54,876 nucleotides of DNA from Nemertoderma westbladi (Eukaryota; Animalia; Xenacoelomorpha): the NCBI GenBank assembly GCA_032718475.1, contig JAUCBJ010005183.1:1-54876 (forward strand). The letters run 5' to 3'. Of the stretch, positions 3,736 to 41,479 are shown in pieces. Numbering within the stretch: position 1 is the first letter of the stretch; every line of letters begins with the position of its first letter. The position numbers were made by a program, and so were the translations under genes. The notes beneath the pieces are model-generated. The model was not told the origin of the DNA. It saw nothing but the letters and a program-made list of their open reading frames with translations, and searched no databases.

Positions 3736-5298
3736 TATATTATACAGCATCAATAGCTACAGTAGTTAAAAAATAATGCTTGAACAATGTTAACAATTAA
3801 TATATGTAGGTGCCAAAACAATTAATTTGAATTCTAAGCATTCCAGAATATCTAAAATTGCACATAATGTAGGGCCAATCGCTCCCTTTTGTTCAAATGT
3901 AGTTACTGTAATTCAATGTAGCTATAGTAATGAAATGTAGCTACAGTAATTATAATATAATTACTGTAGCTATAGTAATAAAATGTAGCTACAGTAATTA
4001 TAATATAATTAGTAAAATTAATATAAAAAGCATTCCAGAATATAACATTGCGAATAATGTAGTCACTATTTTAAAATGTAGCTACAGTAAATTAGATGTA
4101 GCTAGCTACCCGTACAATTTCGAACCAGCAAATTTAATAAAATCATGGGTCACAACCACTAGAGTAAAGCCACCTACGATCAGCATTTAAATCATTTTAA
4201 CCCTTTACTAACCTGCATAATCTATTAACAAGCATGTGTTAACTTGTGTTGTTCCCGGTAATTCTACCAATAACAATTCATCACAATCTGTTACTTAGCA
4301 ACAAAGAAATACATGAAAATATTATTGAATTATAGATGCGGTTTCTATAACACTAATTTTAATTAGTGTATTCCAGAATACAAACAGTGAGCAAGTATAA
4401 TATTACCGCTAAACATAATAAAACATTTAGCGCATCAGCATTTATTCGATATAGCCACGTTAACATCCGCTACTGCTACGATAATATTGCACATACTTGC
4501 GTGCTACTAGTGAGTTATACATCCCGAAATTAATAAGATTTCGCCATTGATTAATTAAAGGGGCAGTTCCGCCTATGGATACAGTAATATTTTTTCTGGT
4601 ACTTTCATACTAGCTAGTTTATTGCATTTTGTCTTTTAAATTATTCTATAACTTGTTAGCCATTGATTAAAATAATTAATCCAATTCTAGGACAAAAATA
4701 TTTGTTGTAGAACATATATTAACATGTTCAAGAACAATTATTTTTTGTTCCAGAACAATTTTCTTGCTTTCAAATTTTGCAATTATTTAAATGTTTTGAA
4801 CATGTTAGCTATATTTAAATGAAATTAATGTTCTGGAATAAACATTATTTGTTCTAGAAACTTTTTTGGAATTATAAGAACAAAATGTAGCCACGGGCGG
4901 AACGATACACCCATAAGAACGAAATCTACAAGAAAATAATTAAATAATAATATTAATAAACTTATGTATAACGCTATGTTCTTGGCGCTATAATACATTA
5001 CAATATTTACACTAATAACTAATTAATTTATATATTATTCACTGCTAATGTTAAAATAATGAACGTATTAATTATTTTCTTAAACATTTCTAAGAGCTCG
5101 AATTTACACACTCGAATTCACAACTAGTGGCAGCGCATTGTAATAAATAAATGTAGCCACAGGTGGAACTTTAATATCTATTTATAGTTATTAAGTTACA
5201 GTAGCCAACTTTTGTGAACTATACAAATTTTTACTTAAAGGACATTAGTAAGCGTGCCATAACTAACTTAGACCGCGCTAAAATATCCCTCACTCACA

Positions 5299-6674
5299 AT
5301 GATGGAACAAGATAATCTCGATGAGATGTTTGTTTCACTGAATGACGATTTAGTAACTATAGACGATGATTTCATCAATGATGAAGACCTGCGGCTCTCT
5401 CAAGAAATAGAAGATAAAAACTATATTACCACCAATAAAAATAGCAACACAAACGAGGCAACAAAGAGTGCAGTAGCAGCGCTAAAAAATTTCCTGCGTC
5501 TCATCAAATGCACCAAAGAAATAACATGTATGAGTATGGAGGAACTAGCATACCACACAAATAATTTCATTAAGAGATACAAAAAAAATCAGGAGAAAAA
5601 CTGGAAACCTCGACCCTTAGGAGTTACTTCTATGGCCTATTGCGTCATTACAAGGAACTATGTATTGGGAATGTCCTCGAGCTGAAAGAATTTAAAGACA
5701 CAAAGGCGGTGTTTCTTGCCAGGTTGTCGCAGCTCAAGGCCGATGGCAAGGGTAATAACCCAAATGCCAGCGACCCAATGGATACCCATGATTTTTCCAT
5801 CATGAAGTCAAGTGGGCAGCTGGGACATTCTACCCCACAGGTGTTGCGAAACACATTGTACGTTGTTTTAACAACACAATTTGGTTGCCGCCCTGGGTTA
5901 GAAATGAGAAACATGATGGTTGGTGATGTAAAGAAGTACTTGGACCAAAAGAAGGGTCTTCACTTCCTACAACTCAAAGAGCGAAATACTAAAACCAGAA
6001 AGGGTTCCACGCCAGGTAGAGTGGTTATCCCAAAGGCGTACGAGGTACCTACAGACCGCGATGTATGTCCCGTGTTCTTGCACGAAAAATACATGGAGAA
6101 ACGGTACCCCAACGGGAAAATAATAGACGAAGACCCCTATTGGGTTCGCCCGAATCCCAATCTACCTAAGGATGGCGCATCATGGTTTTGCAACCAGCCC
6201 GTTAGGAAGAATACCTTCGGTCAGATAATGAAAGATGTTGTAAAACGCTCTGGAATCAACACGGATGGTCGCAAGATCACTCCGATGTCATATAGGAAGA
6301 CAACTGCTCAAGCTATTGTTGACCAACATCTACCAGCGACATATGCCCAGAAACAACTTGGCCATTCTAGTTTGGCCACGACATCCCGTTACATCGACGC
6401 TATTGGAACGGCACAGTACAGTGTGAGCAACGCCCTCTCAAACGTTATATCTGGCGGCGAAATTGCCTTAGATGCGGATAACAACACCACGACATTGCCT
6501 CAAGCTATGATGGCTTCCACCGCATCGACCGCTACTACTTCCTTATAAACGACTACCACGGTACAGTGTACTGATGGCTCTATAGAGTGGACCATGGACT
6601 CCATTTTTAGCAACAATAAGTTCTTTGGGAACGTGAACGTATACGTTGGATCACACCAGAATACAAATAATTAG
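5299..6674 (+). pseudogene. Crypton-type tyrosine recombinase (DUF3504-like) with one frameshift and one premature stop
   Basis: ORFs 5299..5685 and 5640..6548 join if A8 at 5581-5588 is A9 (giving KKKSGEKLETSTLRSYFYGLLRHY). Motifs GCRPGLEMRNM, ERNTKTRKG, DVCPV, WFCNQPVRKNTF, ITPMSYRKT, QLGHSSLATTSRY give the YR R-K-(H)-R-H-Y arrangement. The frame continues past TAA 6546-6548 to IFSNNKFFGNVNVYV and TAG 6672-6674. No introns. Confidence 0.85.
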
Positions 6675-9360: not shown

Positions 9361-10181
9361 CAGGACGTTTCGGCCCTGACGATTCGGCCCGGACGTTTCG
9401 GCCCGGACGATTCGGCCTGGACGTTTCAGTGTCGAAGTTTCGGCTCATGGTTGACAATGAATGAAAAGACCAGGTATATACTTTAATCACAATAATTATT
9501 CATTAAAATTATAATTATAATTTTCACAATAAGCTACTGTATAACACAATAACATACGTTTATTTCATAATTAATAGAAATTCAAACACAATCATTATTA
9601 TTCACAATTATAAAAATAACAGTATACAGTATAACCAATAAGATGTATTTCTTTTTATTCAGGAATAACATTTTTATCTGCCAGACTAAACCCAATGGCT
9701 TCCATGAAGTTTTGTATGGAACGAGCGCCGGTTGCCCTTTGCTGAGTGATCGTTCGCAAACGCTTATGTAAAGCTTCGATCTTAACAAACTTCCTAATAG
9801 GTGGATCAGTTCCCACCGATAACTGTGCCAGTAAGGTTTCGACTTCAGCTTGCTTGGCTTGTAGTGAACTCAGCAATTCAGAGAATGTGAAATTATCTTC
9901 GTAGATTTATAAAATGGAGAGGAGGTTTGGTTCATAACATCCTGTCTAAATTGCGCAACCGAAATATCTGTCTCATCAGTGTGGTAGTCCTTCGAGTGGC
10001 CATTTAATTCACTGGGGTCAGAATGATCAAATATAGTTCTAGAAGATCCAAAACACTTTGGCCTATTCACACAGCGCCAAACGAACGAGGTTTCGGATTT
10101 AACCTTTATACTATAAAACTTGTTGTTAAAATTAAGTTTGGCTTGTTTCCTTTTCGTAAGGAGAGGTGATGATGATGACAT
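9361..10181 (-). mobile_element. Internally deleted FLYWCH/Mutator-like transposon
   Basis: ORF 9870..10181 has a FLYWCH-like start (TKRKQAKLNFNNKFY...VWRCVNRPKC...H). ORF 9655..9876 resembles a MULE transposase C-terminus (LQAKQAEVETLLAQL...PPIRKFV...RL...FMEAIGFSL). The DDE core is absent. 15-bp subterminal repeats ggacg(t/a)ttcggcc at 9361-9445. Confidence 0.65.
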
Positions 10182-13164
10182 ATTTAAAATAGTTGAAGAG
10201 CATAAAAATTGAAGTTAAATAAAATAATTCAAAATAAAATATAAAATAATTGATTTAAAATTGCAACAATACAGTATCTTTCTATATAGGAGGTTAATTA
10301 AAATAATCCATTAACTAAAAAAAGTGATAGCGATTTTACAAGTTGTGACTGTATGACCTCTTTGTTATAAGGCCCATTAATAACATAGAAGCCCATTTCT
10401 CCAACAGCAGATACTATATTGCGCAGTATAATAGCGATTGGGGATCAAACAGTTTAATTAATTAAAATAATGAATGTGTGAGTTGAGTGTGAATGACCTA
10501 CTGTACATATTGCAAAGTGTAATAATTAATTACTGCAAGAATGCAAAACTCAATTTGATTTATTTATGGGATTGATTGACTCTTTGGGCCAAAACGTCCG
10601 ACAAGCAAATATGACTCAGATAATGAGGAGATATTAAGACATGTATTAGGAAATAAAAATAAATTGCAGAAAATAATCAGACAATTGAATGAAATGCAGA
10701 AACATTCGCATAAGGAGAGTGATAATGATGGAAATGAGAGTGATGAGGATGAATCGGAGGAGAGTAATGATGGTAGTGTAGAAGAAGCAGAGGAGAATGA
10801 CAATGAAAATGGACAGAAAATCAGATTAGGGAATGGAAAAGTTATATCACCAGCAATTGTTGTATATCGACCTAGGCGTATGAACAGTCGTACAGTTAAT
10901 GCGAGACATTAATTATAACTGATTATTTGAAATATTTATTATATTTAGTCGTATGAATTATGTGATTTCATAATAATATGTTTAATTAGACAAATAAAGT
11001 CAACCTGCTCCTATTGTAAATGCATAATGAATGGGTAACCAAAACATCAAATTAGTTAAACATTTTGACAAGAGATAAACAAATGTTCTCCTTTACAAGG
11101 TTGATTTGAGATGTGGGAAGAAGTGGTGTGCTGGAGAAGTGGCTGAGGGTGAGGGTGAGGCTGAGGGTGAGGTTGAGGCTGAGGGTGAGGCCGTGGTTGG
11201 AGGAATTAAGTTTATTATCATAGTTTGTTCTTTGGTAGTGTCCATCGTGAAGATAGTAGCAGGCACGGAATATAAAGTGAGCGAAGTTTGCTGAAATTAG
11301 AACGGGTTGGTTTAAAGTTGTATTTATCGTTAACGGAAAGAGTTTGTTTGACGAATCGAAATAGAAGCCAAACGAGTTGTCTAGTAGCGTATACTGATTC
11401 TCGCTGCAAACCATCTCATTGTTTGAATAGCTGATCTCCATAGTGGTATTGTGAAATTTTAGTTTGACTCGTTTTATGAAATAAATAAATACTTTTAAGA
11501 AAAATAATTCAAACTTTTTAACAATACAAATTAAAACATTCCCCAATGGGACAATCTAAGTTAATAATTCACTGCTTCTTTGCTAAAATTTTAGGAATAT
11601 ATAACCACAACCAGCTCTGTTAAATCAGATGGAACCGGTTTACCTTATCATGTGATGGTTATTGAGAAATGTTGCTGGTTGAGATAGACTCGGTAAGACA
11701 TGAAACAGGTAAGTCTTGGTGGGATAAATATTTCTCCATTTGACGCAACACCGCCGCGGCCGCTATGAGGGAGGTGAATACCGCGGCCGCTCCTAAAGCC
11801 GCAGGCCATCGCTAACTATATAGGTTAACTTGGGATTCTGGGGGACTTTTCGATGAAGGAACAGACCAAATTTTTTTATTTTCTCACCAGGGGAGCGGCT
11901 CGGAATTCTAAGATATTAGCAACTCTAACATTATTAAATCTAACCCTTCGACGGACACGGCGGACAAAAATCCGTCATTTTTTCGACAATTTTAAAATTT
12001 TTTTGAAAGGCGCTCTACAGTGGCTCGAAAAAACCCTAGGTTATTGCTTAGCCGACGCCGGGATACGATAGAAGGGATTAATTAGTGAATTCGTTTTTTT
12101 TTTCAAAAAAGATTACCACGCCTTTTTTCCGAAAATGTCCGTCAAAGTTGAAAAAACGGACAAAATGACTTTGCGGGATCCGCTATAACTCGGCTAATAT
12201 TAATCGTACGGGAACGAAAGTAACGCGGTTGGAAAGGGGAAGAGTGGTACTACCTTCGTATCGAATGGGGGTAAGATATTTATTAAAATTTCGGGTGGAA
12301 AAAGGGGCTGTAACTTTGTACGTTTTTGTCCGTCTTTTTTGGAAAACTTATTTCCGAAATGTTTAATTCGACAACGCGGGTAGGAATCCACTAATTCTTT
12401 TATGAAACTCGTAGAAGACCATTATTGGGGCTACGTTCCTATCGAATGGGGGTACAAAAAATATGTCGGCAATAGGGGCCAAAAAGGGCCAGAATTTGTA
12501 AAGTAGTTTTTATCGAATAATTTTTTATTTTTAACTTTAGTTGGTTAAGGTACATTCTATACAGTCAATATCCATACGGGGAATTCAAATATGCTATCGG
12601 TTTTGCTCCAAGGATGATATTAAAAAAATGAGGGCCAAAATTATAATTTCGCGCTTCAAACTTGCTTCGCGGGAAATCGTCTAGCTCGAAAACTACTTAA
12701 CTTACGGGAGATTTGTTTACACAGACTTATAGTGCGTTAAATTATCTATCTAACAGCGTTAATCACAGCGACGGAGGTATTATAAAACTGGAGCGGCAGG
12801 CGATCGTGTGAAATATAATATTTATAAAAAGGGACGAAACATTTTTTTTTTAACAAATCGCTATTCCATTATAATTTAGCGTATTGCGCCAAAAGTACCT
12901 GTAAAAAGTATCAAATTAACTCCGCTATCTTTTATCTTAACATATATAATTAAAATTACGAATTTTAAGGGTCGAAAAATATCGCGTTATTTTGGCCCTT
13001 TTTTTTAATTTTTTTGGGGCCAAAAATAACCCCTTCTCAAAAGATTAAGAAAAAAATTACGGCAAAGAATATACCAATTTTATTGAATTTGGACCACCAG
13101 AACCGAAGTCAGAGCGATTTTAGTGAAAAAATAAAAATAATTTTTTTTGCAAAAAAATTAAGAA

Positions 13165-16345: not shown

Positions 16346-16991
16346 TGCTCTGTTCCATGACTTATTTTCTCCATCGGGCTGCCAAAGGAAAATATTGTGT
16401 GCACTGACTGGTCTGGTCCTCACGGCGAAAGCAATGCCCTGCAAAGTGGAGACGGCTCCGTTCAAGTGTTAGGGTAATGAAACACCTCCAATACCGATAA
16501 GGTGGAAGACGTGTAAGTCACGGAATACACAGCTGTACTGTACAATACTTGGGCATTGGGTGAAACACATCGGGTCGCAAAAATAACATCTAAATTTGCC
16601 ATGTTTGTAAAACACGTTTATCCATTTTTAATATTTTTAAGATGTTTTTTGTGCAGGAGTAAAAAGACCCCATGTGAATAAAAATAGAGACTTGACATAA
16701 TTCAATGATCAAATTAAGAACAATGAACTTGTTTTTATTTTTCACATTATGTGACTCCTTATGTTTATATAAATTTTCTCGTCTGAGTCTTGATGGTCAG
16801 AATATTATACAAAGGTATACCATAAAATGTGGAAGAAGTTGTTGTAGGGTGTGTTGTATTTGGAAAAATGTATTTAAAATTAAATCTGATACAACATATT
16901 ATAATAAATATCGCAGTTACCATTAATTCAAAAATATTGAAAGCACATCTGTAGAAACACGGAATAAGGCAAACAAACAATTCACAACAAA

Positions 16992-16997
16992 TTTATT
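16992..16997 (-). promoter_or_regulatory. Candidate polyadenylation signal of DNAJC3
   Basis: AATAAA on the minus strand about 90 nt after the stop codon, followed by TG/T-rich sequence. Other AATAAA hexamers occur further downstream in this AT-rich region. Confidence 0.4.
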
Positions 16998-17084
16998 ACT
17001 TTTTTTAGTAAAGTGTATTAAATAAACCATAAAATAAATGTATGTTACAACAAACCCTCCCCCGAGTTAAGTAAAGTTGTTGCG

Positions 17085-17227
17085 TCATGTGAAGTGGAAT
17101 TTAAAGTGGGAACCCCCACCTCCGAATGGGTTGAAGCCACCGTGGTGGTGTCGGAATGGGTTACCGCGCTGCGCCTGTTCCTCCGCATCTAATGGGTCCT
17201 CCCCGCGGTCGAACTGGGCGCGTTTCT
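17085..17227 (-). CDS. DNAJC3: DNAJC3 terminal coding exon
   Basis: gtttatttcgtag|AG-KRAQFDRGEDPLDAEEQAQRGNPFRHHHGGFNPFGGGGSHFKFHFT-TGA. Matches the DNAJC3 C-terminus (FDDGEDPLDAE...FKFHFN). Confidence 0.95.
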
Positions 17228-17414
17228 CTACGAAATAAACGTAAAATTACCGTTGTCTCATACACCCCCGGTAATTAATGTCAAGATACTGATTTAAACT
17301 AAATAGTGGGTTAAACGGGAACATAAAGGATAAACTACCAGAAATAAACGGGAAACGTCTCATATAAAGGATCCTGGATACTTCCTTACACATTAATACA
17401 CGCACACAAACTAT

Positions 17415-20400
17415 ACATTGTTACCTGGACCCCTAAGGACTTCCTTTGCAGCTGCTATATCTATAAACATTGTTACCTGGGTCACTAAGAACTTCCTTTG
17501 CAGCTGCTATATCTATAAACATTGTTACCTGGGTCACTAAGGACTTCCTTTGCAGCTGCTATATCTATAAACATTGTTACCTGGGTCACTAAGAACTTCC
17601 TTTGCAGCTGCTATATCTATAAACATTGTTACCTGGGTCACTAAGAACTTCCTTTGCAGCAGCTATATCTATAAACATTGTTACCTCGGTCACTAAGAAC
17701 TTCCTTTGCAGCTGCTATATCTATAAACATTGTTACCTGGGTCACTAAGAACTTCCTTTGCAGCTGCTATATCTATAAACATTGTTACCTGGGTCACTAA
17801 GGACTTCCTTAGCAGCTGCTATATCTATAAACATTGTTACCTGGGTCACTAAGAACTTCCTTAGCAGCTGCTATATCTATAAACATTGTTACCTGGGTCA
17901 CTAAGAACTTCCTTAGCAGCTGCTATATCTATAAACATTGTTACCTGGGTCACTAAGGACTTCCTTTGCAGCTGCTATATCTATAAACATTGTTACCTGG
18001 GTCACTAAGAACTTCCTTTGCAGCTGCTATATCTATAAACATTGTTACCTGGGTCACTAAGAACTTCCTTTGCAGCTGCTATATCTATAAACATTGTTAC
18101 CTGGGTCACTAAGAACTTCCTTTGCAGCTGCTATATCTATAAACATTGTTACCTGGGTCACTAAGAACTTCCTTAGCAGCTGCTATATCTATAAACATTG
18201 TTACCTGGGTCACTAAGGACTTCCTTTGCAGCTGCTATATCTATAAACATTGTTACCTGGGTCACTAAGAACTTCCTTTGCAGCTGCTATATCTATAAAC
18301 ATTGTTACCTGGGTCACTAAGAACTTCCTTTGCAGCTGCTATATCTATAAACATTGTTACCTGGGTCACTAAGGACTTCCTTAGCAGCTGCTATATCTAT
18401 AAACATTGTTACCTGGGTCACTAAGAACTTCCTTAGCAGCTGCTATATCTATAAACATTGTTACCTGGGTCACTAAGAACTTCCTTAGCAGCTGCTATAT
18501 CTATAAACATTGTTACCTGGGTCACTAAGGACTTCCTTTGCAGCTGCTATATCTATAAACATTGTTACCTGGGTCACTAAGAACTTCCTTTGCAGCTGCT
18601 ATATCTATAAACATTGTTACCTGGGTCACTAAGAACTTCCTTAGCAGCTGCTATATCTATAAACATTGTTACCTGGGTCACTAAGAACTTCCTTTGCAGC
18701 TGCTATATCTATAAACATTGTTACCTGGGTCACTAAGAACTTCCTTTGCAGCTGCTATATCTATAAACATTGTTACCTGGGTCACTAAGAACTTCCTTTG
18801 CAGCTGCTATATCTATAAACATTGTTACCTGGGTCACTAAGAACTTCCTTAGCAGCTGCTATATCTATAAACATTGTTACCTGGGTCACTAAGGACTTCC
18901 TTAGCAGCGCTATATCTATAAACATTGTTACCTGGGTCACTAAGAACTTCCTTTGCAGCAGCTATATCTATAAACATTGTTACCTGGGTCACTAAGAACT
19001 TCCTTTGCAGCTGCTATATCTATAAACATTGTTACCTGGGTCACTAAGAACTTCCTTTGCAGCTGCTATATCTATAAACATTGTTACCTGGGTCACTAAG
19101 AACTTCCTTTGCAGCTGCTATATCTATAAACATTGTTACCTGGGTCACTAAGAACTTCCTTTGCAGCAGCTATATCTATAAACATTGTTACCTGGGTCAC
19201 TAAGGACTTCCTTTGCAGCTGCTATATCTATAAACATTGTTACCTGGGTCACTAAGAACTTCCTTTGCAGCTGCTATATCTATAAACATTGTTACCTGGG
19301 TCACTAAGAACTTCCTTTGCAGCTGCTATATCTATAAACATTGTTACCTGGGTCACTAAGGACTTCCTTAGCAGCTGCTATATCTATAAACATTGTTACC
19401 TGGGTCACTAAGGACTTCCTTTGCAGCTGCTATATCTATAAACATTGTTACCTGGGTCACTAAGAACTTCCTTTGCAGCTGCTATATCTATAAACATTGT
19501 TACCTGGGTCACTAAGGACTTCCTTTGCAGCTGCTATATCTATAAACATTGTTACCTGGGTCACTAAGGACTTCCTTTGCAGCTGCTATATCTATAAACA
19601 TTGTTACCTGGGTCACTAAGGACTTCCTTAGCAGCTGCTATATCTATAAACATTGTTACCTGGGTCACTAAGAACTTCCTTTGCAGCTGCTATATCTATA
19701 AACATTGTTACCTGGGTCACTAAGAACTTCCTTTGCAGCTGCTATATCTATAAACATTGTTACCTGGGTCACTAAGAACTTCCTTTGCAGCTGCTATATC
19801 TATAAACATTGTTACCTGGGTCACTAAGAACTTCCTTTGCAGCTGCTATATCTATAAACATTGTTACCTGGGTCACTAAGAACTTCCTTTGCAGCAGCTA
19901 TATCTATAAACATTGTTACCTGGGTCACTAAGAACTTCCTTTGCAGCTGCTATATCTATAAACATTGTTACCTGGGTCACTAAGAACTTCCTTTGCAGCT
20001 GCTATATCTATAAACATTGTTACCTGGGTCACTAAGGACTTCCTTTGCAGCTGCTATATCTATAAACATTGTTACCTGGGTCACTAAGAACTTCCTTTGC
20101 AGCTGCTATATCTATAAACATTGTTACCTGGGTCACTAAGGACTTCCTTTGCAGCTGCTATATCTATAAACATTGTTACCTGGGTCACTAAGAACTTCCT
20201 TTGCAGCAGCTATATCTATAAACATTGTTACCTGGGTCACTAAGAACTTCCTTTGCAGCTGCTATATCTATAAACATTGTTACCTGGGTCACTAAGAACT
20301 TCCTTTGCAGCAGCTATATCTATAAACATTGTTACCTGGGTCACTAAGAACTTCCTTTGCAGCAGCTATATCTATAAACATTGTTACCTGGGTCACTGAG

Positions 20401-23400
20401 AACTTCCTTTGCAGCAGCTATATCTATAAACATTGTTACCTGGGTCACTAAGAACTTCCTTTGCAGCTGCTATATCTATAAACATTGTTACCTGGGTCAC
20501 TAAGAACTTCCTTTGCAGCTGCTATATCTATAAACATTGTTACCTGGGTCACTAAGAACTTCCTTTGCAGCTGCTATATCTATAAACATTGTTACCTGGG
20601 TCACTAAGAACTTCCTTTGCAGCAGCTATATCTATAAACATTGTTACCTGGGTCACTAAGGACTTCCTTTGAAGCTGCTATATCTATAAACATTGTTACC
20701 TGGGTCACTAAGTACTTCCTTTGCAGCTGCTATATCTATAAACATTGTTACCTGGGTCACTAAGTACTTCCTTTGCAGCTGCTATATCTATAAACATTGT
20801 TACCTGGGTCACTAAGTACTTCCTTTGCAGCTGCTATATCTATAAACATTGTTACCTGGGTCACTAAGTACTTCCTTTGCAGCTGCTATATCTATAAACA
20901 TTGTTACCTGGGTCACTAAGTACTTCCTTTGCAGCTGCTATATCTATAAACATTGTTACCTGGGTCACTAAGTACTTCCTTTGCAGCTGCTATATCTATA
21001 AACATTGTTACCTGGGTCACTAAGTACTTCCTTTGCAGCTGCTATATCTATAAACATTGTTACCTGGGTCACTAAGTACTTCCTTTGCAGCTGCTATATC
21101 TATAAACATTGTTACCTGGGTCACTAAGTACTTCCTTTGCAGCTGCTATATCTATAAACATTGTTACCTGGGTCACTAAGTACTTCCTTTGCAGCTGCTA
21201 TATCTATAAACATTGTTACCTGGGTCACTAAGAACTTCCTTTGCAGCAGCTATATCTATAAACATTGTTACCTGGGTCACTAAGGACTTCCTTTGCAGCT
21301 GCTATATCTATAAACATTGTTACCTGGGTCACTAAGTACTTCCTTTGCAGCTGCTATATCTATAAACATTGTTACCTGGGTCACTAAGTACTTCCTTTGC
21401 AGCAGCTATATCTATAAACATTGTTACCTGGGTCACTAAGAACTTCCTTTGCAGCTGCTATATCTATAAACATTGTTACCTGGGTCACTAAGAACTTCCT
21501 TTGCAGCTGCTATATCTATAAACATTGTTACCTGGGTCACTAAGAACTTCCTTAGCAGCTGCTATATCTATAAACATTGTTACCTGGGTCACTAAGTACT
21601 TCCTTTGCAGCTGCTATATCTATAAACATTGTTACCTGGGTCACTAAGGACTTCCTTTGCAGCTGCTATATCTATAAACATTGTTACCTGGGTCACTAAG
21701 AACTTCCTTAGCAGCTGCTATATCTATAAACATTGTTACCTGGGTCACTAAGTACTTCCTTTGCAGCTGCTATATCTATAAACATTGTTACCTGGGTCAC
21801 TAAGAACTTCCTTTGCAGCTGCTATATCTATAAACATTGTTACCTGGGTCACTAAGAACTTCCTTTGCAGCTGCTATATCTATAAACATTGTTACCTGGG
21901 TCACTAAGTACTTCCTTTGCAGCTGCTATATCTATAAACATTGTTACCTGGGTCACTAAGAACTTCCTTAGCAGCTGCTATATCTATAAACATTGTTACC
22001 TGGGTCACTAAGAACTTCCTTTGCAGCTGCTATATCTATAAACATTGTTACCTGGGTCACTAAGAACTTCCTTTGCAGCTGCTATATCTATAAACATTGT
22101 TACCTGGGTCACTAAGAACTTCCTTTGCAGCTGCTATATCTATAAACATTGTTACCTGGGTCACTAAGGACTTCCTTTGCAGCTGCTATATCTATAAACA
22201 TTGTTACCTGGGTCACTAAGAACTTCCTTTGCAGCTGCTATATCTATAAACATTGTTACCTGGGTCACTAAGAACTTCCTTTGCAGCTGCTATATCTATA
22301 AACATTGTTACCTGGGTCACTAAGAACTTCCTTTGCAGCTGCTATATCTATAAACATTGTTACCTGGGTCACTAAGGACTTCCTTTGCAGCTGCTATATC
22401 TATAAACATTGTTACCTGGGTCACTAAGAACTTCCTTTGCAGCTGCTATATCTATAAACATTGTTACCTGGGTCACTAAGAACTTCCTTTGCAGCTGCTA
22501 TATCTATAAACATTGTTACCTGGGTCACTAAGAACTTCCTTTGCAGCTGCTATATCTATAAACATTGTTACCTGGGTCACTAAGAACTTCCTTTGCAGCA
22601 GCTATATCTATAAACATTGTTACCTGGGTCACTAAGAACTTCCTTTGCAGCTGCTATATCTATAAACATTGTTACCTGGGTCACTAAGAACTTCCTTTGC
22701 AGCTGCTATATCTATAAACATTGTTACCTGGGTCACTAAGTACTTCCTTTGCAGCTGCTATATCTATAAACATTGTTACCTGGGTCACTAAGTACTTCCT
22801 TTGCAGCAGCTATATCTATAAACATTGTTACCTGGGTCACTAAGGACTTCCTTTGCAGCTGCTATATCTATAAACATTGTTACCTGGGTCACTAAGAACT
22901 TCCTTTGCAGCTGCTATATCTATAAACATTGTTACCTGGGTCACTAAGGACTTCCTTTGCAGCTGCTATATCTATAAACATTGTTACCTGGGTCACTAAG
23001 GACTTCCTTTGCAGCTGCTATATCTATAAACATTGTTACCTGGGTCACTAAGAACTTCCTTTGCAGCTGCTATATCTATAAACATTGTTACCTGGGTCAC
23101 TAAGAACTTCCTTTGCAGCTGCTATATCTATAAACATTGTTACCTGGGTCACTAAGGACTTCCTTTGCAGCTGCTATATCTATAAACATTGTTACCTGGG
23201 TCACTAAGAACTTCCTTTGCAGCTGCTATATCTAGAAACATTGTTACCTGGGTCACTAAGAACTTCCTTTGCAGCAGCTATATCTATAAACATTGTTACC
23301 TGGGTCACTAAGAACTTCCTTAGCAGCTGCTATATCTATAAACATTGTTACCTGGGTCACTAAGAACTTCCTTTGCAGCAGCTATATCTATAAACATTGT

Positions 23401-26400
23401 TACCTGGGTCACTAAGAACTTCCTTTGCAGCTGCTATATCTATAAACATTGTTACCTGGGTCACTAAGAACTTCCTTTGCAGCAGCTATATCTATAAACA
23501 TTGTTACCTGGGTCACTAAGAACTTCCTTAGCAGCTGCTATATCTATAAACATTGTTACCTGGGTCACTAAGAACTTCCTTTGCAGCAGCTATATCTATA
23601 AACATTGTTACCTGGGTCACTAAGAACTTCCTTTGCAGCTGCTATATCTATAAACATTGTTACCTGGGTCACTAAGAACTTCCTTAGCAGCTGCTATATC
23701 TATAAACATTGTTACCTGGGTCACTAAGAACTTCCTTTGCAGCAGCTATATCTATAAACATTGTTACCTGGGTCACTAAGAACTTCCTTTGCAGCTGCTA
23801 TATCTATAAACATTGTTACCTGGACCACTAAGGACTTCCTTTGCAGCTGCTATATCTATAAACATTGTTACCTGGGTCACTAAGAACTTCCTTTGCAGCT
23901 GCTATATCTATAAACATTGTTACCTGGGTCACTAAGAACTTCCTTAGCAGCAGCTATATCTATAAACATTGTTACCTGGGTCACTAAGAACTTCCTTTGC
24001 AGCTGCTATATCTATAAACATTGTTACCTGGGTCACTAAGAACTTCCTTAGCAGCTGCTATATCTATAAACATTGTTACCTGGGTCACTAAGGACTTCCT
24101 TTGCAGCTGCTATATCTATAAACATTGTTACCTGGGTCACTAAGAACTTCCTTTGCAGCAGCTATATCTATAAACATTGTTACCTGGGTCACTAAGAACT
24201 TCCTTAGCAACTGCTATATCTATAAACATTGTTACCTGGGTCACTAAGGACTTCCTTTGCAGCTGCTATATCTATAAACATTGTTACCTGGGTCACTAAG
24301 AACTTCCTTTGCAGCAGCTATATCTATAAACATTGTTACCTGGGTCACTAAGGACTTCCTTTGCAGCTGCTATATCTATAAACATTGTTACCTGGGCCAC
24401 TAAGAACTTCCTTTGCAGCTGCTATATCTATAAACATTGTTACCTGGGTCACTAAGAACTTCCTTTGCAGCTGCTATATCTATAAACATTGTTACCTGGG
24501 TCACTAAGAACTTCCTTTGCAGCAGCTATATCTATAAACATTGTTACCTGGGTCACTAAGAACTTCCTTTGCAGCAGCTATATCTATAAACATTGTTACC
24601 TGGGTCACTAAGAACTTCCTTTGCAGCAGCTATATCTATAAACATTGTTACCTGGGTCACTAAGAACTTCCTTTGCAGCAGCTATATCTATAAACATTGT
24701 TACCTGGGTCACTAAGAACTTCCTTTGCAGCAGCTATATCTATAAACATTGTTACCTGGGTCACTAAGTACTTCCTTTGCAGCTGCTATATCTATAAACA
24801 TTGTTACCTGGGTTACTAAGAACTTCCTTTGCAGCAGCTATATCTATAAACATTGTTACCTGGGTCACTAAGAACTTCCTTTGAAGCTGCTATATCTATA
24901 AACATTGTTACCTGGGTCACTAAGAACTTCCTTTGAAGCTGCTATATCTATAAACATTGTTACCTGGGTCACTAAGAACTTCCTTTGAAGCTGCTATATC
25001 TATAAACATTGTTACCTGGGTCACTAAGAACTTCCTTTGCAGCAGCTATATCTATAAACATTGTTACCTGGGTCACTAAGAACTTCCTTTGCAGCAGCTA
25101 TATCTATAAACATTGTTACCTGGGTCACTAAGAACTTCCTTAGCAGCTGCTATATCTATAAACATTGTTACCTGGGTCACTAAGGACTTCCTTAGCAGCT
25201 GCTATATCTATAAACATTGTTACCTGGACCCCTAAGGACTTCCTTAGCAGCTGCTATATCTATAAACATTGTTACCTGGGTCACTAAGAACTTCCTTTGC
25301 AGCAGCTATATCTATAAACATTGTTACCTGGGTCACTAAGAACTTCCTTTGCAGCTGCTATATCTATAAACATTGTTACCTGGGTCACTAAGGACTTCCT
25401 TTGCAGCTGCTATATCTATAAACATTGTTACCTGGGTCACTAAGAACTTCCTTTGCAGCAGCTATATCTATAAACATTGTTACCTGGGTCACTAAGAACT
25501 TCCTTTGCAGCTGCTATATCTATAAACATTGTTACCTGGGTCACTAAGGACTTCCTTTGCAGCAGCTATATCTATAAACATTGTTACCTGGGTCACTAAG
25601 AACTTCCTTTGCAGCTGCTATATCTATAAACATTGTTACCTGGGTCACTAAGGACTTCCTTTGCAGCTGCTATATCTATAAACATTGTTACCTGGGTCAC
25701 TAAGAACTTCCTTTGCAGCTGCTATATCTATAAACATTGTTACCTGGGTCACTAAGAACTTCCTTTGCAGCTGCTATATCTATAAACATTGTTACCTGGG
25801 TCACTAAGGACTTCCTTTGCAGCAGCTATATCTATAAACATTGTTACCTGGGTCACTAAGAACTTCCTTTGCAGCTGCTATATCTATAAACATTGTTACC
25901 TGAGTCACTAAGGACTTCCTTTGCAGCTGCTATATCTATAAACATTGTTACCTGGGTCACTAAGAACTTCCTTTGCAGCTGCTATATCTATAAACATTGT
26001 TACCTGGGTCACTAAGGACTTCCTTTGCAGCAGCTATATCTATAAACATTGTTACCTGGGTCACTAAGAACTTCCTTTGCAGCTGCTATATCTATAAACA
26101 TTGTTACCTGAGTCACTAAGGACTTCCTTTGCAGCTGCTATATCTATAAACATTGTTACCTGGGTCACTAAGGACTTCCTTTGCAGCTGCTATATCTATA
26201 AACATTGTTACCTGGGTCACTAAGAACTTCCTTTGCAGCAGCTATATCTATAAACATTGTTACCTGGGTCACTAAGAACTTCCTTTGCAGCAGCTATATC
26301 TATAAACATTGTTACCTGGGTCACTAAGAACTTCCTTTGCAGCTGCTATATCTATAAACATTGTTACCTGGGTCACTAAGAACTTCCTTTGCAGCTGCTA

Positions 26401-28128
26401 TATCTATAAACATTGTTACCTGGGTCACTAAGGACTTCCTTTGCAGCTGCTATATCTATAAACATTGTTACCTGGACCACTAAGGACTTCCTTAGCAGCT
26501 GCGATATCTATAAACATTGTTACCTGGGTCACTAAGAACTTCCTTTGCAGCTGCTATATCTATAAACATTGTTACCTGGGTCACTAAGAACTTCCTTTGC
26601 AGCTGCTATATCTATAAACATTGTTACCTGGGTCACTAAGAACTTCCTTTGCAGCTGCTATATCTATAAACATTGTTACCTGGGTCACTAAGAACTTCCT
26701 TTGCAGCTGCTATATCTATAAACATTGTTACCTGGGTCACTAAGAACTTCCTTTGCAGCTGCTATATCTATAAACATTGTTACCTGGGTCACTAAGAACT
26801 TCCTTTGCAGCTGCTATATCTATAAACATTGTTACCTGGGTCACTAAGAACTTCCTTTGCAGCTGCTATATCTATAAACATTGTTACCTGGGTCACTAAG
26901 AACTTCCTTAGCAGCTGCTATATCTATAAACATTGTTACCTGGGTCACTAAGGACTTCCTTTGCAGCTGCTATATCTATAAACATTGTTACCTGGGTCAC
27001 TAAGAACTTCCTTTGCAGCTGCTATATCTATAAACATTGTTACCTGGGTCACTAAGAACTTCCTTTGCAGCTGCTATATCTATAAACATTGTTACCTGGG
27101 TCACTAAGAACTTCCTTTGCAGCTGCTATATCTATAAACATTGTTACCTGGGTCACTAAGAACTTCCTTTGCAGCTGCTATATCTATAAACATTGTTACC
27201 TGGGTCACTAAGAACTTCCTTTGCAGCTGCTATATCTATAAACATTGTTACCTGGGTCACTAAGAACTTCCTTTGCAGCTGCTATATCTATAAACATTGT
27301 TACCTGGGTCACTAAGAACTTCCTTTGCAGCTGCTATATCTATAAACATTGTTACCTGGGTCACTAAGAACTTCCTTTGCAGCTGCTATATCTATAAACA
27401 TTGTTACCTGGGTCACTAAGAACTTCCTTTGCAGCTGCTATATCTATAAACATTGTTACCTGGGTCACTAAGAACTTCCTTAGCAGCTGCTATATCTATA
27501 AACATTGTTACCTGGGTCACTAAGAACTTCCTTTGCAGCTGCTATATCTATAAACATTGTTACCTGGGTCACTAAGAACTTCCTTTGCAGCTGCTATATC
27601 TATAAACATTGTTACCTGGGTCACTAAGAACTTCCTTAGCAGCTGCTATATCTATAAACATTGTTACCTGGGTCACTAAGAACTTCCTTAGCAGCTGCTA
27701 TATCTATAAACATTGTTACCTGGGTCACTAAGAACTTCCTTTGCAGCTGCTATATCTATAAACATTGTTACCTGGGTCACTAAGAACTTCCTTTGCAGCT
27801 GCTATATCTATAAACATTGTTACCTGGGTCACTAAGAACTTCCTTTGCAGCTGCTATATCTATAAACATTGTTACCTGGGTCACTAAGAACTTCCTTAGC
27901 AGCTGCTATATCTATAAACATTGTTACCTGGGTCACTAAGGACTTCCTTAGCAGCGCTATATCTATAAACATTGTTACCTGGGTCACTAAGAACTTCCTT
28001 AGCAGCTGCTATATCTATAAACATTGTTACCTGGGTCACTAAGAACTTCCTTTGCAGCTGCTATATCTATAAACATTGTTACCTGGGTCACTAAGAACTT
28101 CCTTTGCAGCTGCTATATCTATAAACAT
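17415..28128 (-). repeat. 52-bp tandem array (about 206 units) derived from the DNAJC3 exon 3' end plus splice donor
   Basis: Unit (minus) ATGTTTATAGATATAGCAGCTGCAAAGGAAGTTCTTAGTGACCCAG|GTAACA. First donor G at 28082, last at 17424: 10658 bp = 205x52 minus two 1-bp deletions (near 18908 and 27955). Confidence 0.98.
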
Positions 28129-28192
28129 GACTTCAGCTTTCTCTTTCTCTTTTCCATCGTATCCATCGGGGTGCCATTGTGCCGCTAATTTC
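28083..28192 (-). CDS. DNAJC3: DNAJC3 J-domain exon with HPD motif, 110 nt; its 3' end is the first unit of the 52-bp array
   Basis: atttgcag|G-KLAAQWHPDGYDGKEKEKAEVMFIDIAAAKEVLSDP-G|gtaaca. It carries HPD and FIDIAAAKEVLSDP as in DNAJC3 orthologues. Only this first donor gives an open frame into the last exon by simple exon extension. Confidence 0.95.
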
Positions 28193-28554
28193 CTGCAAAT
28201 ATGATTCAATTATTTACATATGGCGAGGGGGGGGGGGGGGATTTATTCTAGAATAAAGACAAAAAACATTAGAATTTTAGAGATTTAAGGCTCAAAATGA
28301 ATACCTTTGAATTTGATATCACCGGAAGTTATTGGTGAAATTGAAAACGAAAAATAAATAAAGACGAAAAATAACGCAGATGGAGGTGGCTAAATATCGC
28401 TATTTTTAACGGCTTGTTGAATCGATGAAGCCCAGAAATTGAAAATCCGGCCAGGCCAGCACTAAGAAAAATTTTCGAACTATCATCATACCAAATTTCG
28501 TAGCTTATGATTGAAATTTGAAAAATATAGGGGGGGGGGGGATATTCCCATTGG

Positions 28555-29744
28555 CGATATCTCCTTTGCAGAAGTTAAGGCTGCTGCAAAGAGCATTAAG
28601 ACCAATCGTTCCAGTGGAGTAGATGGTGTCCCCCTGAGGTCTTTAAAATACCCGAGTTTTTAAAGCTCATCTATCCCATCATAGTAGACATGTACAGAAC
28701 AACAAGAGTTCCACAAGAAATGAAAACAAATAAGTTGGTGCCAGTTCCCAAGAAGGGCAACCTAACACTCTCTGGTTCTTTTCGGGGAATCTCATTGATC
28801 TCGATTGCTGCAAAGCTATACAATATAATTCTATTAAATCGCATCAGGGATTCTATTGAGAGACTGCTCCGTGGAAATCAGAATGGGTTCCGTAAAGGTC
28901 GTGGGACCGTGGAGCCCATTTTGGCACTTTAGAAGGATAATTTAAGAGTTATCAAAAAAGAAAGACAGGCATCTGGCTGTTATCTTTGTTGACTTCTTCA
29001 AGGCCTTTGATTCAGTCTCTCGCTCACGTATGTTCAGCATACTTTCATTATATGAGATTCCTGATGAAATTATTGCAGCAATCAGATCAGTATACGATGG
29101 TTCGACAACATTTGTGTCTACTGTTGACGGTGACACAGAACCATTTGAAGTATTATGGGGAGTCCTCCAAGGAGACACACTTGCGCCATTCTTGTTCATA
29201 ATTGTGGTTGACTATGTTCTACGCATGTCCTTAGATCACCACAATGATGATGGGGTGATGGTAACTCCACCTACTGGCTCCAGAAGTCGAGGAAATCCTG
29301 CCAAGTACCTAACTGATTCAGACTTTGCTGATGACTTAGGAGTACTCTCAGAATCACTAGAGGGAGCCCAACGGCTTCTCAGCTCGTTAGAACAGGCTGC
29401 TTCTAGTGTTGGTCTTTTTATTAACTCCAGAAAGACCAAAATTTTGACAGTTAACTTTGAGAATTCTCAGCAAGTCTCTGACCGGATGAGCATAAGCTCA
29501 AAGGATGGTATGCTTGAGCATGTGGGCGACTTCTGTTACCTTTCGCCGTGAGGACCAGCCAGTGCATAATCTTGTACTTTGGCAGCCTCATGGAGTAAAT
29601 AAGCATGGTGGACAGCCCATGACTTTCTTGAGAAGCATCTTAAAGGACACTGGCCTTGAAGATGCGGATGATCTAGCAAATGTCATGGGTGATAGGGAGT
29701 TGTGGCGGCGCAATTTTGTCAACAAGCCGGCACAGCATTCTTAA
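28555..29744 (+). mobile_element. Degraded RTE-clade LINE fragment (RT domain to 3' end), antisense in DNAJC3 intron
   Basis: PVPKKGNL...FRGISLISIAAKLYN...QNGFRKGR, IFVDFFKAFDS, GVLQGDTLAPFLF, DFADD, WQPHG...DRELWR. Has stops, frameshifts and an internal deletion near 29545. Confidence 0.9.
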
Positions 29745-29779
29745 AAATGCAGTTGCAATGCAGCATGCCGATCCTAGTA

Positions 29780-32629: not shown

Positions 32630-32798
32630 CTGTATGCTTTTGTTATCTCCCTCTTAGTGGCCGTTCTCCTAACTCCCAATATTTTGTAATAATCTCTTTT
32701 CTTTGACTGTTTTATGAGTTTCTGAGTTCTCTGAATGCCTTCGTGAGACCTCCTGTGGTCCTCGTCGATGCTGTGAGCTTCCTGAAAGTCCGCCAAAG
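32630..32798 (-). CDS. DNAJC3: DNAJC3 coding exon (end of TPRs, start of J domain), 169 nt
   Basis: tatttacag|CT-LADFQEAHSIDEDHRRSHEGIQRTQKLIKQSKKRDYYKILGVRRTATKREITKAY-AG|gtgggc. Contains the J-domain start KRDYYKILGV. Confidence 0.95.
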
Positions 32799-33169: not shown

Positions 33170-34860
33170 AACAAACATACACACAGACAAACAGATAGAG
33201 ACAGACAGTCAGAGACACATACAAACATACACACACACAAACACCTAGAGACAGACAGTCAGAGACACATACAAACATACACACAGACAAACAGATAGAG
33301 ACATACAGTCAGAGACACATACAAACATACACACAGACAAACGGATAGGAGACAGACAGTCAGAGACACATACAAACATAGAAACGGACACACAGATAGA
33401 GACAGACAGTCAAAGACACATACAAACATACACACCCGACAAACAGATAGAGACAGACAGTCAGAGACACATACAAACATACACACAGACAAACAGATAG
33501 AGACATACAGTCAGAGACACATACAAACATACACACAGACAAACAGATAGAGACAGACAGTCAGAGACACATACAAACATACACACAGACAAACAGATAG
33601 AGACATACAGCCAGAGACACATACAAACATACACACAGACAAACAGATAGAGACAAACAGTCAGAGACACATACAAACATACATACACACAAACAGATAG
33701 AGACAGACAGTCAGAGACACATATAAACATAGACACGGACAAACAGATAGAGACAGAGAGTCAAAGACACATACAAAGATACACACAGACAAACAGATAG
33801 AGACAGACAGTCAGAGACACATACAAACATACACAGAGACAAACAGAGACAGACAGTCAGAGACACAGACAAACAGATAGAGACAGACAGTCAGAGACAC
33901 GTACAAACATACACACAGACAAACAGATAGAGACCGACAGTCAGAGGAACATACAAACATACGCAGAAACAAACAGATAGAGACAGAGAGTCAGAGACAC
34001 ATACAAACATAGACACGGACAAACAGATGGAGACAGACAGTCAGAGACACATACAAACATTCACACAGACAAACAGATAGAGACAGACAGTCAGAGACAC
34101 ATATAAACATAGACACGTACAAACAGATAGAGACAGACAGTCAGAGACACATACAAACATAGACACGGACAAACAGATAGAGACAGACAGTCAGAGACAC
34201 ATACAAACATATACACAGACCAACAGATAGAGACAGACAGTCAGAGATACATACAAACATAGATACGGACAAATAGATAGAGACAGACAGACAGAGACAC
34301 ATACAAACATACTCACAGACAAACATATAGAGACATACAGTCAGAAACACATACAAACATACACACGGACAAACAGATAGAGACAGACAGTCAGAGAAAC
34401 ATACAAACATACACAGAACCAAACAGATAGAGTCAGACAGTCAGAGACACATACAAACATACACACACACACGCCGATAGAGACAGACAGTCAGAGACAC
34501 ACACAAACATACACACAGACACCCCAATAGAAACATACCGTCAGAGACACATACAAACATACACACAGACAAACAGATAGAGACAGACAGTCAGAGACAC
34601 ATACAAACATACACACAGACAAACAGATAGAGACAGACAGTCTAAGACACGTACAAACATACACACAGATAGAGACAGAGAGTCAGAGACATACAAACAT
34701 ACACCCCGACAAACAGATAGAGACACACAGTCAGAGACACATATAAACATACATTCAGGCAGGTAGGTAGAAAGAGAGGCTGACATGGAGTTAGGCAGGC
34801 TGACAGATAGACAGACATACATAGAGTCATACAGGCAGACAGAGAAATAGGTAGACAGAC
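33170..34860. repeat. 50-bp CA/GA-rich minisatellite (about 31 units) decaying into simple repeats
   Basis: Unit acacacagacaaacagatagagacagacagtcagagacacatacaaacat with variants. Confidence 0.95.
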
Positions 34861-38316: not shown

Positions 38317-41162
38317 TACTACTACTACTAGGTCGAGCGAACTCGGACAGTGGAAATGAGATCCTTCCAGGCTTCCCGATTCTCCATAGTTGTCGCAATT
38401 TCGTTTCTCCCAAGTTCAGTATCCCTTTCAAGTTGATCTATATATGTTATGGCCGGTCGTCCACGACTACGCTTTCCATGAGTTGGTTGCCAGAGAAGTA
38501 GATCTGGTATGACCTCGTCTTTACTTCGCCAGCAGTGCCCACTGAATCTTAATCTGCGTTCACGGAGGCTGGTTGATACAGGTGGTATTGTACCATAAAG
38601 CTCGGCGTTTGTCATGTGTTGTCTCCAGCTGCTGTTTAGGGCTGCCCTTAGTAGTCTTGTGTAGCAACCATCAATTCGTTGTTCAAGTGATTTAGTCAGT
38701 GTCCATGTCTCACCTCCGTATAAAAATACACTTTCCACTGTGGCTCGAAAGAACTTGGTCTTCAGGTGCCTGGAGAGATTTGATTTCCAGATGGTATCCA
38801 TTTTTGATAGAGCTACCCAAGCCTTTGCTTTCCTAACTTCTATGTCCTTTTTGCTACTCTCTATCCATGATCCAAGGTACTGGAAGTCATCGACCTGCCT
38901 TAGTTGATTATTATCAATGGTTGTCAAGTTTCCATCAACATTAAAGGTCATGAATTCGGTCTTGGTAGCATTTATATGCAATCCAACCTCCTTAGCAGCC
39001 CTCTCCACTTTATTTAGTAGAAGCTGTGCATCTGCTAGCGTATTAGAGAGCAGGGCGATGTCATCCGCAAAGTCGGTATCTGTGACTGTAGTTGCCGGAT
39101 ATCTACTACTTCTGCGTTCTTGAAGTGTGAATCCCAGATCTTCACCCTTTGTGGCCGTCCTCATTGCGTAATCCAGCACAATTACAAATAGTAATGGTGC
39201 TAATGTGTCACCTTGCAGTACGCCAGCCAGGATTGAGAAAAACTCAGTTTCACCATCTGGTGAGAGTACCTGCGCTTCTGTGTCACAATATAGCAATCCA
39301 ATGCCAGCAACAATTACTTCTGGTATTCCATAAGCTCTTAGGATTTCAAGCATTTTACCTCTATGGATGGAGTCGAATGCCTTCTTGAAGTCCACAAAAG
39401 TCATGACTGCGGGGAGATTCTTTGACTTGATTCCTTCAATCAGTCTCCGTAGTGCAAGTATCTGAGCTATTGTTGATCTACTTGGTCGAAATCCGTTTTG
39501 ACTCTTACGCAGTAGTTTCTCTATGTGAGGCCTAATCCTATATAGAATCATTTTATTGTATATTTTGGCAGCTACCACAAGCAGACAGATCCCACGATAG
39601 TTTGTTGGTATGCCGAGGTCTCCTTTCTTGGGGAGAGGCTTTAGTTGACCTTTAGTCCAAATTGGTGGTGGCTTTTCCCCTTTTAACATCCGGTTGCAAA
39701 CATTCAATAATGGTCTATTTAGCACTCCGGTTTTCCATACCTCCGCTGGGATTTCATCTAATCCACTCGCTTTATTATTGGACATGCTTTTAATGCTTCT
39801 TTGGAGTTCGGCAGGTGTGAAGTCCCCTGTTTCTATAGGTAGTGTCTTGTCATATATTTTCCTTGTAGGGCTGACCTCGATGTTTGGTGGCTGCCCAAGC
39901 AAGTTGCTGAAGTGATTTTTCCACTTCCCAACACGTTCTTCAGGACTATCGGCTTTGAGGCGCCCCTTTGCACTACTTTTCCGACCAGATACCTCATTTA
40001 CAGTTTGCCAGGTAAGTCTTGATTGTTGCTGTATGTGAGCAGTTGTAATTGCTTCAGTTTTATCCTGTATGTACTTTTCCTGGCTGATGTTGTAGGCCAA
40101 TTTAAGGTCGTCCTTAGCTTTCTCAACCTTGTTAATGTTTTCGGTTGTTGGTTGTTCGGTTTTAACTTTGTAGGCTATCTTAAGATATTCTCTCTTACAA
40201 GTAACCTCAGAGTTTTGCCATGGCACATACTGTTTTCGTTTAGGTTTCTGGGGGATATGCCTCTTAGCTGATTCCTTGTGGGCTGTTATTATATTCTGGT
40301 ATATTGAATCGGTGGACTGGTCTTCATCCATTGACTGAAGTGCTTCAAAGCGGTTTTGAACTTCTACTGTATAAGCATCCTTTACAGCATTGTCAGTCAT
40401 CCCAGTCATATTTGATTTGCTTGCTTGTCCTGGGTTTGCTGGCTCTCAAACTGAGTCTGATCTCTGCAGTCACAATTCTGTGGTCCGAACCAATTAGGTT
40501 GAACGAGCTGTATGCCTCGCAGTTGATCATGCTATTTCTCCACTTTTTGTTTATAAGGATGTAATCCAGTTGTGCTTTGGTTCCATTAGGGTATTGAAAG
40601 GTCCATAGCTTCCCCTTACTCTTTTCGAATGTGTTGTTTGTTGGTATCAATTCACATTCTTCCATTAGGTCAAGAGTAAGTACCCATTTCTGTTAGAACT
40701 GGTGTTATAGGTGTAACCCTTGATGTCTTCTGGGCCAATTTGCGCATTCAGGTCACCAGCAATGACTTTAACATTGTGTTTCGGGATGTCCTTAATAAGT
40801 CCAGTCAGTTCTTCATAAAACTTGACTGCTTGTTCTGGCTCTGATGCATTGGTTGGACTGTAGCAACATATAACTGTTGTCTTGGGATTCCCATCAAATG
40901 TTGCGATCATAACCCTGGAATTTATAGATTCGATGTTGTTTAGGGTCTTAAGTGCAAATGGGCTTAGCAGAATTCCTACTCCACCAATTGATGCATTGGC
41001 CGAGTTTCTTACTGCTGAGCTTGTTACTAACGTCCATCCATTTCCAATGTCATTGTACTTCATGGCAGTGTCTTCATGACAAATCCGATGTTCTTGGATG
41101 CAGATGATGTCGATGTTATATTCCATTGCCAGAGCGACCATGTCACCCTGTTTGCTCTCTGG
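38317..41162 (-). mobile_element. Nearly full-length RTE-clade LINE (APE + RT), 5'-truncated, two frameshifts
   Basis: ORFs 40665..41141 and 40393..40665 (APE: ICIQEHR, YSPT, GDLNA, LDYIL, SDH) and 38328..40409 (RT: FVDFKKAFDS, GVLQGDTLAP, FADD). (TAG)n 3' tail at 38317-38330. Candidate TSD atatagaaaaata (38306-38318) / atatagaacaata (41163-41175). Confidence 0.95.
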
Positions 41163-41479
41163 ATATAGAACAATATATATACAATTATATCGAAGACCTA
41201 TATAAAACCTCTACTAAGTGGATTAATAAAAAGTGGGAAGTGACAAAAAGTGATTTATATTTTTATCGAAATTACTTTATTTTTTTGTTCGATTTTTGTC
41301 ATTATAGTGCAGCACAGAAATGCACAACACACCTAGATACTTCAATCACCTGCTATCTATGATGATTTTAATTTATGATGGTTTAAGAGGCAGCATCCAT
41401 AAATGATGGGAGACATTTTTAGTAGCGAATTAAAATGAAAAACAAATTGTATCACTTAATAATCAAACAGCTAACCAAC

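Follow-up and report, generated by a model that had tools for sequence, protein, structure and literature searches.

Common variants are silent in an intronic array of exon-end copies in a DNAJC3 gene of Nemertoderma westbladi

In a gene of the xenacoelomorph Nemertoderma westbladi, the last intron is filled by tandem copies of the end of the preceding exon, and the variants that have become common among these copies are all synonymous in the exon's reading frame. Why should an array that lies almost wholly within an intron vary as if it were translated? The question is addressed here for the window, a stretch of 54,876 nucleotides (GenBank contig JAUCBJ010005183.1), which is compared with X1-X4, four of six runs; in the other two, X5 and X6, its share was small or nil. 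The first-pass annotation of this DNA offered three options: the units are translated, they exchange sequence with the exon so that selection on the exon filters the array, or they archive past silent alleles of the exon end. We give about an even chance to a form of the second, in which the array, a non-coding minisatellite, has its common variants kept compatible with the protein by indirect selection, acting through the overwriting of the single unit that belongs to the exon.

The DNAJC3 gene and its last intron

To judge from homology, an animal DNAJC3 (P58IPK) gene lies on the minus strand, its 3′ part falling within the window, and six of its exons were placed by homologue search, comparison with PDB 2y4t (E 2e-13) and tblastn. 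Their order is that of DNAJC3, TPR repeats coming first and a J-domain with the HPD motif at the C-terminal end, and the best matches, from several invertebrate groups, reach 65-75% identity across one exon. Three TPR exons lie at 53480-53286, 49909-49796 and 41707-41478 (tblastn, borders approximate), and the start of the gene is outside the window, beyond these upstream exons. The next exon (32630..32798) contains the end of the TPR region and the start of the J-domain, and is joined to the penultimate exon in a spliced contig from run X4. The penultimate exon itself (28083..28192) carries the J-domain with HPD (Pfam DnaJ, E 3e-7) and shows 0 differences from the X4 contig. The last exon and 3′ UTR occupy 16844..17227, with the stop codon ending at 17085 and the poly(A) tail at about 16844. 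Between these two exons, the last intron (28082-17228) is filled by the array and then by about 190 unique bases (17228..17418), which end in the acceptor AG (17229-17228). An Rfam search of 27800-28300 gave 0 matches.

Anatomy of the array

The array (17419..28128, minus strand) is a minisatellite of 206 units, 204 of 52 bp and two of 51 bp, and spans about 10.7 kb. Each unit consists of the final 46 nt of the penultimate exon and 6 nt of donor; unit positions are numbered from the unit's first base on the gene (minus) strand. Unit 1 (28077..28128) is the true exon end (28128-28083) together with the authentic 5′ splice site (GT at 28082-28081). Full length is kept by 189 of the 206 units, and the 15 residues that these encode are those of unit 1; 86 units are identical to it. 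The donor (positions 47-52) is invariant across all tabulated units, and variation is absent from positions 45-52 and 1-6 as a whole.

At the far end lies a divergent edge unit, unit 206 (17419..17470), with four differences from unit 1 (33C, 39G, 41G and 42T), among them the changes S>R and D>G. Positions 19-52 of this unit are common to a contig from another sample, and pieces of the same type recur in the interior at units 32, 56 and 83. A haplotype with a 1-bp deletion is likewise present at both unit 4 and unit 178. Because these deletion and edge haplotypes recur up to 9 kb apart, units must move far within the array. The unit thus spans an exon-intron border, the first unit is the authentic border, the splice signal is reiterated through the intron, and a homogenised interior is followed by a divergent edge. 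This is a known kind of repeat, the junction minisatellite, here unusually long. The unique remainder of the intron opens with the same four bases as an array unit, which suggests that the founding 52-bp duplication was guided by microhomology.

Two further minisatellites in the window are purely intronic. One (42325-43170) has 11.6 copies of 72 bp and is nearly invariant, and the other (33171-34753) has 32 copies of 50 bp and is variable; their distances of 618 and 373 bases from the nearest exon borders rule them out as junction arrays. The 72-bp array also contains too few variants to serve as a control (2 singletons in 9 units).

Splicing of the array

Transcript evidence comes from one contig of X4, a run recorded as ‘DNA?’. 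The contig, 1185 nt long, joins the previous, penultimate and last exons in spliced form and ends in poly(A). It holds a single array unit, with the first donor used, although contigs hide rare forms. The authentic splice site is therefore the one used in the mature RNA, as far as one contig can tell. Splicing from any later donor would put the sequence out of frame and lead to a stop in unit 2.

These observations bear on the option that the units are translated. In this case, an in-frame micro-exon of 36 nt from each unit would sometimes be spliced in, and the resulting peptide would be selected directly. The sequence does offer the required signals, with an AG at positions 9-10 in the right phase, like the gene's own acceptors, and a GT at 47-48. 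The GT..AG stretch over the unit junctions (positions 47-52 and 1-10, 16 of the 52 sites) holds just 1 of the 16 variant alleles (P 0.02, post hoc). Against this, extra in-frame units are absent from the spliced contig (one contig, one study), and no back-joint of 36 or 52 nt is listed for X4, where rare forms would be dropped from contigs. Read-through meets the stop in unit 2, and inserted peptides would land within a highly conserved helix of the J-domain. Translation of the units is therefore unsupported, and we consider it very improbable.

Array and exon in other samples

The distal flank in X1 shows 0 differences from the window in 925 bases; X1 probably has the same source as the window and hence is not independent of it. 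The highest depth of an array contig relative to the flank is 91 in X1 and 17 in X2, depth being a poor measure of copy number. Since X1 reaches 91 times the flank and the window itself contains the 31-mers of the consensus 87-195 times, the large array is not an assembly artefact. Compared with the window, the flanks in the other samples show 8-10 changed letters in 936, about 1%. A contig from X3, which derives from the same sample as X2, reads as unit 1 followed by one edge-type unit that carries the deletion seen in window units 4 and 178. It may be an allele of two units or else a collapsed path, and is suggestive of length polymorphism between alleles. In metagenome contigs, exact-pattern scans gave 0 loci.

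In the last exon, a silent third-position difference at 17121 is common to X2, X3 and X4 as against the window and X1, so DNAJC3 exons do carry silent polymorphism.

The first-pass annotation had suggested looking for the silent alleles of the array in the true exon. None is present in unit 1 of the window, in X4 (0 differences) or in X3, whose unit 1 is resolved for positions 1-21 only and is thus informative at position 18 alone. With mixing of exon and array, an all-consensus sample of exons would be expected about 0.2 of the time, which makes this weak counterevidence.

Variation among the units

The 206 units contain 16 variant alleles, of which four are common (18-43 units each) and twelve rare (1-5 units). 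Two of the common alleles affect the same Val codon (33T>C in 43 units and 33T>A in 18), one the first Ala (18A>T, 36 units) and one the Ala before Lys (24A>T, 32 units); in unit 1 the three sites, positions 18, 24 and 33, correspond to 28111, 28105 and 28096. All four are synonymous changes at fourfold-degenerate third positions. Complete tabulation thus bears out the initial observation that the common variants are silent and fall at three fourfold-degenerate sites in one Val and two Ala codons.

The silent bias is confined to these common alleles. Among the rare ones, 2-3 of 12 are synonymous, which is the neutral share (3 of 12 gives P = 0.37-0.50). The rare synonymous alleles are 15A>C, 36T>C and 42C>T, the last being always accompanied by 41A>G and hence part of the D>G change. 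Rare non-synonymous changes include A>S (4 units), P>S (2), P>R (1), D>N (1) and D>G (5, including 25229 and 17430), and further I>L (23235), A>V (24210) and S>R (25231 and 17432); two units have the 1-bp deletion (27955 and 18908). The first-pass list of rare changes placed its entries correctly. It counted D>G in three units instead of five, and missed I>L, A>V, S>R, the deletion and the rare synonymous alleles.

With 28 of the 156 possible substitutions in a unit being synonymous, the probability that four of four common alleles are synonymous is 0.0010-0.0022 for transition weights of 1-8, and 0.0071 when alleles are matched by type of base change. The value of about 0.002 originally proposed lies at the low end of the range of 0.001-0.007. 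If intron positions are counted as silent, P is 0.004-0.007; for three sites instead of four alleles it is 0.006-0.010, or 0.02-0.025 with the intron counted as silent. Given that 7 of the 16 alleles are synonymous, P = 0.019 for the top four all being so. Nucleotide diversity is 0.118 at synonymous and 0.005 at non-synonymous sites (piN/piS 0.042). The cut between common and rare, at 8% of units, is post hoc, but no allele falls between 5 and 18 units. At face value the bias is real; it consists of four events on one haplotype, recognised post hoc.

The main competitor of indirect selection is chance, in which four early third-position mutations in a neutral minisatellite hitch-hiked on expansions and were picked out by a large scan. 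We regard this as rather unlikely, though it deserves weight: there are only four events, P rises to 0.007, and the window was chosen from a very large scan for this very pattern. Moreover, the rare alleles are neutral, the sampled exons are monomorphic, 33A has expanded locally, as has the non-synonymous 22T block, and 33C shares an old edge haplotype with D>G and S>R. The reading frame, however, was set beforehand by the gene, and in the five other frames 0, 0, 0, 0 and 2 of the four common alleles are synonymous.

A mutational origin of the pattern can also be imagined, in which the same changes recur through the correction of hairpins, or through slippage by 3 nt within the run of three Ala codons, and are silent by coincidence. 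The alleles 24T, 33C and 33A each create a perfect local inverted repeat (arms of 6, 5 and 4), and 18T copies the adjoining triplet. Such arms are easily produced, however: 46 of the 156 substitutions give arms of at least 4, and just 9 of these 46 are synonymous. Of the 17 with arms of at least 5, 11 non-synonymous ones are never seen, while two of the four synonymous ones are common. The best candidate for slippage, 21T>A with a match of 7 nt, is absent, and the common alleles alter folding in no common direction (RNA ranks 0.07, 0.17, 0.35 and 0.90). Templated mutation or drive is accordingly judged improbable.

History and movement of the units

The arrangement of alleles along the array bears on the remaining option, in which growth from unit 1 has left the array with a store of former or foreign silent exon alleles, while mutations of its own go unselected. 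Some features agree with such an archive. Of the first 26 units 18 equal unit 1, 18T is missing from the first 35, and 33C appears to be old, being present on the edge unit that is common to another sample. Against it, divergence shows no gradient along the array away from the exon (Spearman 0.06, P 0.39), and a relic of the deletion type already lies at unit 4. Units with a common allele mostly differ from the exon type by one step, so the haplotypes form a star and not a chain. Allele doubles are at or below random expectation, save for 24T-33C (9 against 6.7). No exon variant was seen at the array sites, and with allelic divergence at about 1%, silent changes numbering four among some nine silent sites are too many. 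A serial archive is disfavoured, and we consider it improbable. For the three widespread alleles, lag-1 autocorrelation ranges from -0.05 to 0.19, and 33A forms a local block.

Overwriting of the exon as a proposed source of indirect selection

Selection acting through the exon would operate as follows. A microhomology-guided duplication of 52 bp would have founded the array, and unequal exchange and conversion would then amplify and mix the units, unit 1 included. An array allele that changes an amino acid, present at frequency x, would cost about u*x of the descendants per generation through its entry into the J-domain exon. In a large population this cost may be enough to keep protein-changing alleles from becoming common; silent alleles would drift freely, and new, rare alleles would escape. 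The same process would keep the donor intact in every unit. The transfer of array alleles into the exon, on which all this depends, is proposed here. The strong conservation of the 15 residues encoded by the exon end, in which 8 of the first 14 columns are invariant in 106 homologues, counts in favour of this explanation. The frameshifted unit at unit 4, close to the exon, counts against it.

Its feasibility was explored in simulated populations whose units overwrite each other, including unit 1, with a penalty on a protein-changing unit 1. The 23 parameter sets, three of which were neutral controls, were scaled and run with 1-2 seeds; the samples are autocorrelated, and the scan of parameters went on until some gave a fit. 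The values for turnover rate, population size and fitness cost are assumed inputs. Neutral controls gave piN/piS of about 1.1. With 2Nu of 40-120, long-range movement and some inter-allelic exchange, piN/piS fell to 0.04-0.25, the common alleles being filtered and the rare ones barely so. A conversion-type setting (theta 0.01, 200 units, 2Nu = 120, 5% inter-allelic long-range events) produced piS of 0.10-0.15 and piN/piS of 0.04-0.05, compared with 0.118 and 0.042 observed, and two parameter sets match both quantities. Other sets failed, with piN/piS of 0.85 and 0.48 at 2Nu of 4 and 12, of 0.88 under local turnover in steps of 3 units, and of 0.36-0.39 at 2Nu 40 without inter-allelic exchange. 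A crossover-only model followed the same trend and reached only 0.39-0.88 in the range run.

With the real site classes and 2Nu = 90, simulated arrays held 3.1 common and 11.4 rare alleles (observed 4 and 12), and the synonymous share of the rare ones was 0.22 (observed 0.25). Among 115 arrays with at least three common alleles, 35 had no protein-changing one; only 3 were strictly all-synonymous, because intron positions +3 to +6 were left free. The likelihood of the observed pattern under fitted models of this kind (0.03-0.3) is about 25-70 times higher than under chance (0.001-0.004). In these models, selection through the exon would need long-range turnover at about 4,000-12,000 times the point mutation rate at theta 0.01. 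For an assumed point mutation rate of 5 x 10^-9 this means 2-6 x 10^-5 per generation. Such turnover would lie within the rates of minisatellites. Filtering by exchange with the exon, the second of the original options, is thus feasible in simulation for part of the parameter range.

Relation to known systems

The ‘mirage’ minisatellites of lancelets were reportedly described by Canestro in 2002. Examples are found in Adh3, the globins BflGb6 and BflGb9, TnC and PGBD5, and consist of tandem copies of exon-intron borders that include the splice signals and are spliced normally (PMC3087553; PMC3902484). Like the DNAJC3 array, they show concerted evolution with divergent edge units, and they vary in length. 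BflGb6, however, has 3-6 copies, as against 206 (10.7 kb) here, and the parts of these reports consulted describe no codon-position bias among units (PMC3087553; PMC3902484). Donor-spanning VNTRs of humans, in F7 intron 7 (37 bp, 5-9 copies), CBS intron 13, LMNB2 and PDGF, are also similar, in that the first unit spans the border, the most upstream donor is chosen and the later pseudo-donors are mostly silent (PMC1557585). The F7 unit contains 4 exon bases, compared with 46 (15 codons) and 205 decoy donors in DNAJC3, and a signature of selection on the units is not described in the consulted part of that source (PMC1557585).

Selection across copies has precedents elsewhere. In multigene families conversion lets selection act across copies, and non-functional copies such as pseudogenes can pass damaging changes to the working gene (PMC3924837, citing Mano and Innan 2008). 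That theory, as far as the consulted text goes, concerns expressed copies or diversifying selection, whereas the signal here is a purifying one, and 205 of the 206 units are fragments within an intron. The unexpressed vls cassettes of Borrelia bear a codon-level signature of selection through recombination into the expressed locus, and their helix regions show slightly more synonymous change (PMC3828179). By contrast to this programmed, diversifying antigen system, the DNAJC3 array has no evident programme or benefit. Diversifying selection on amino acids is not seen in it (piN/piS 0.042), and array alleles occur in 0 of two fully and one partly resolved exon copies.

The literature searched, to which most subscription papers do not belong, yielded no description of synonymous bias among the units of junction arrays. 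The bias is probably real and apparently undescribed, although the present evidence amounts to four events at one locus, in an array of a type already known. A tentative generalisation, which we put at somewhat under an even chance, is that exon-junction minisatellites of animals with large populations are untranslated and held in frame by second-order selection, through leakage into the exon. If this were true, the variant spectrum of an array would be a measure of how often exons are rewritten by intronic repeats, and rates of repeat-to-exon conversion could be estimated from a single long-read haplotype. Non-coding DNA would show selection of the coding type (piN/piS about 0.04) through the risk of recombination alone, so that a low dN/dS would no longer imply translation, nor codon bias in intronic repeats prove hidden exons. 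Intact decoy donors in such arrays would be explained, and second-order selection on mutability could be tested cleanly on a natural system.

Other elements in the window

The DNAJC3 introns and the adjoining DNA contain several further elements. An open frame of 280 codons with a Cys-rich start (45144-45983, plus strand) lies in a DNAJC3 intron and has no Pfam match, and a weak FLYWCH match below cut-off (9585-10214, minus strand) is possibly a transposase remnant. The intron before the J-domain exon holds a broken fragment of a LINE reverse transcriptase (28560-29750, plus strand; RVT_1, E 4e-17); the adjoining segment 28230-28550 matches many high-depth contigs and is a dispersed repeat. 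At 5272-6545 (plus strand) lies the frame of a tyrosine recombinase, which matches DUF3504 and Phage_integrase and probably belongs to a Crypton-type transposon. A LINE-type element, on the same strand as the gene, lies within another DNAJC3 intron (38331-41210, minus strand); it has a frame of 705 amino acids (RVT_1, E 5e-35), preceded by an endonuclease frame whose match is below the Pfam cut-off.
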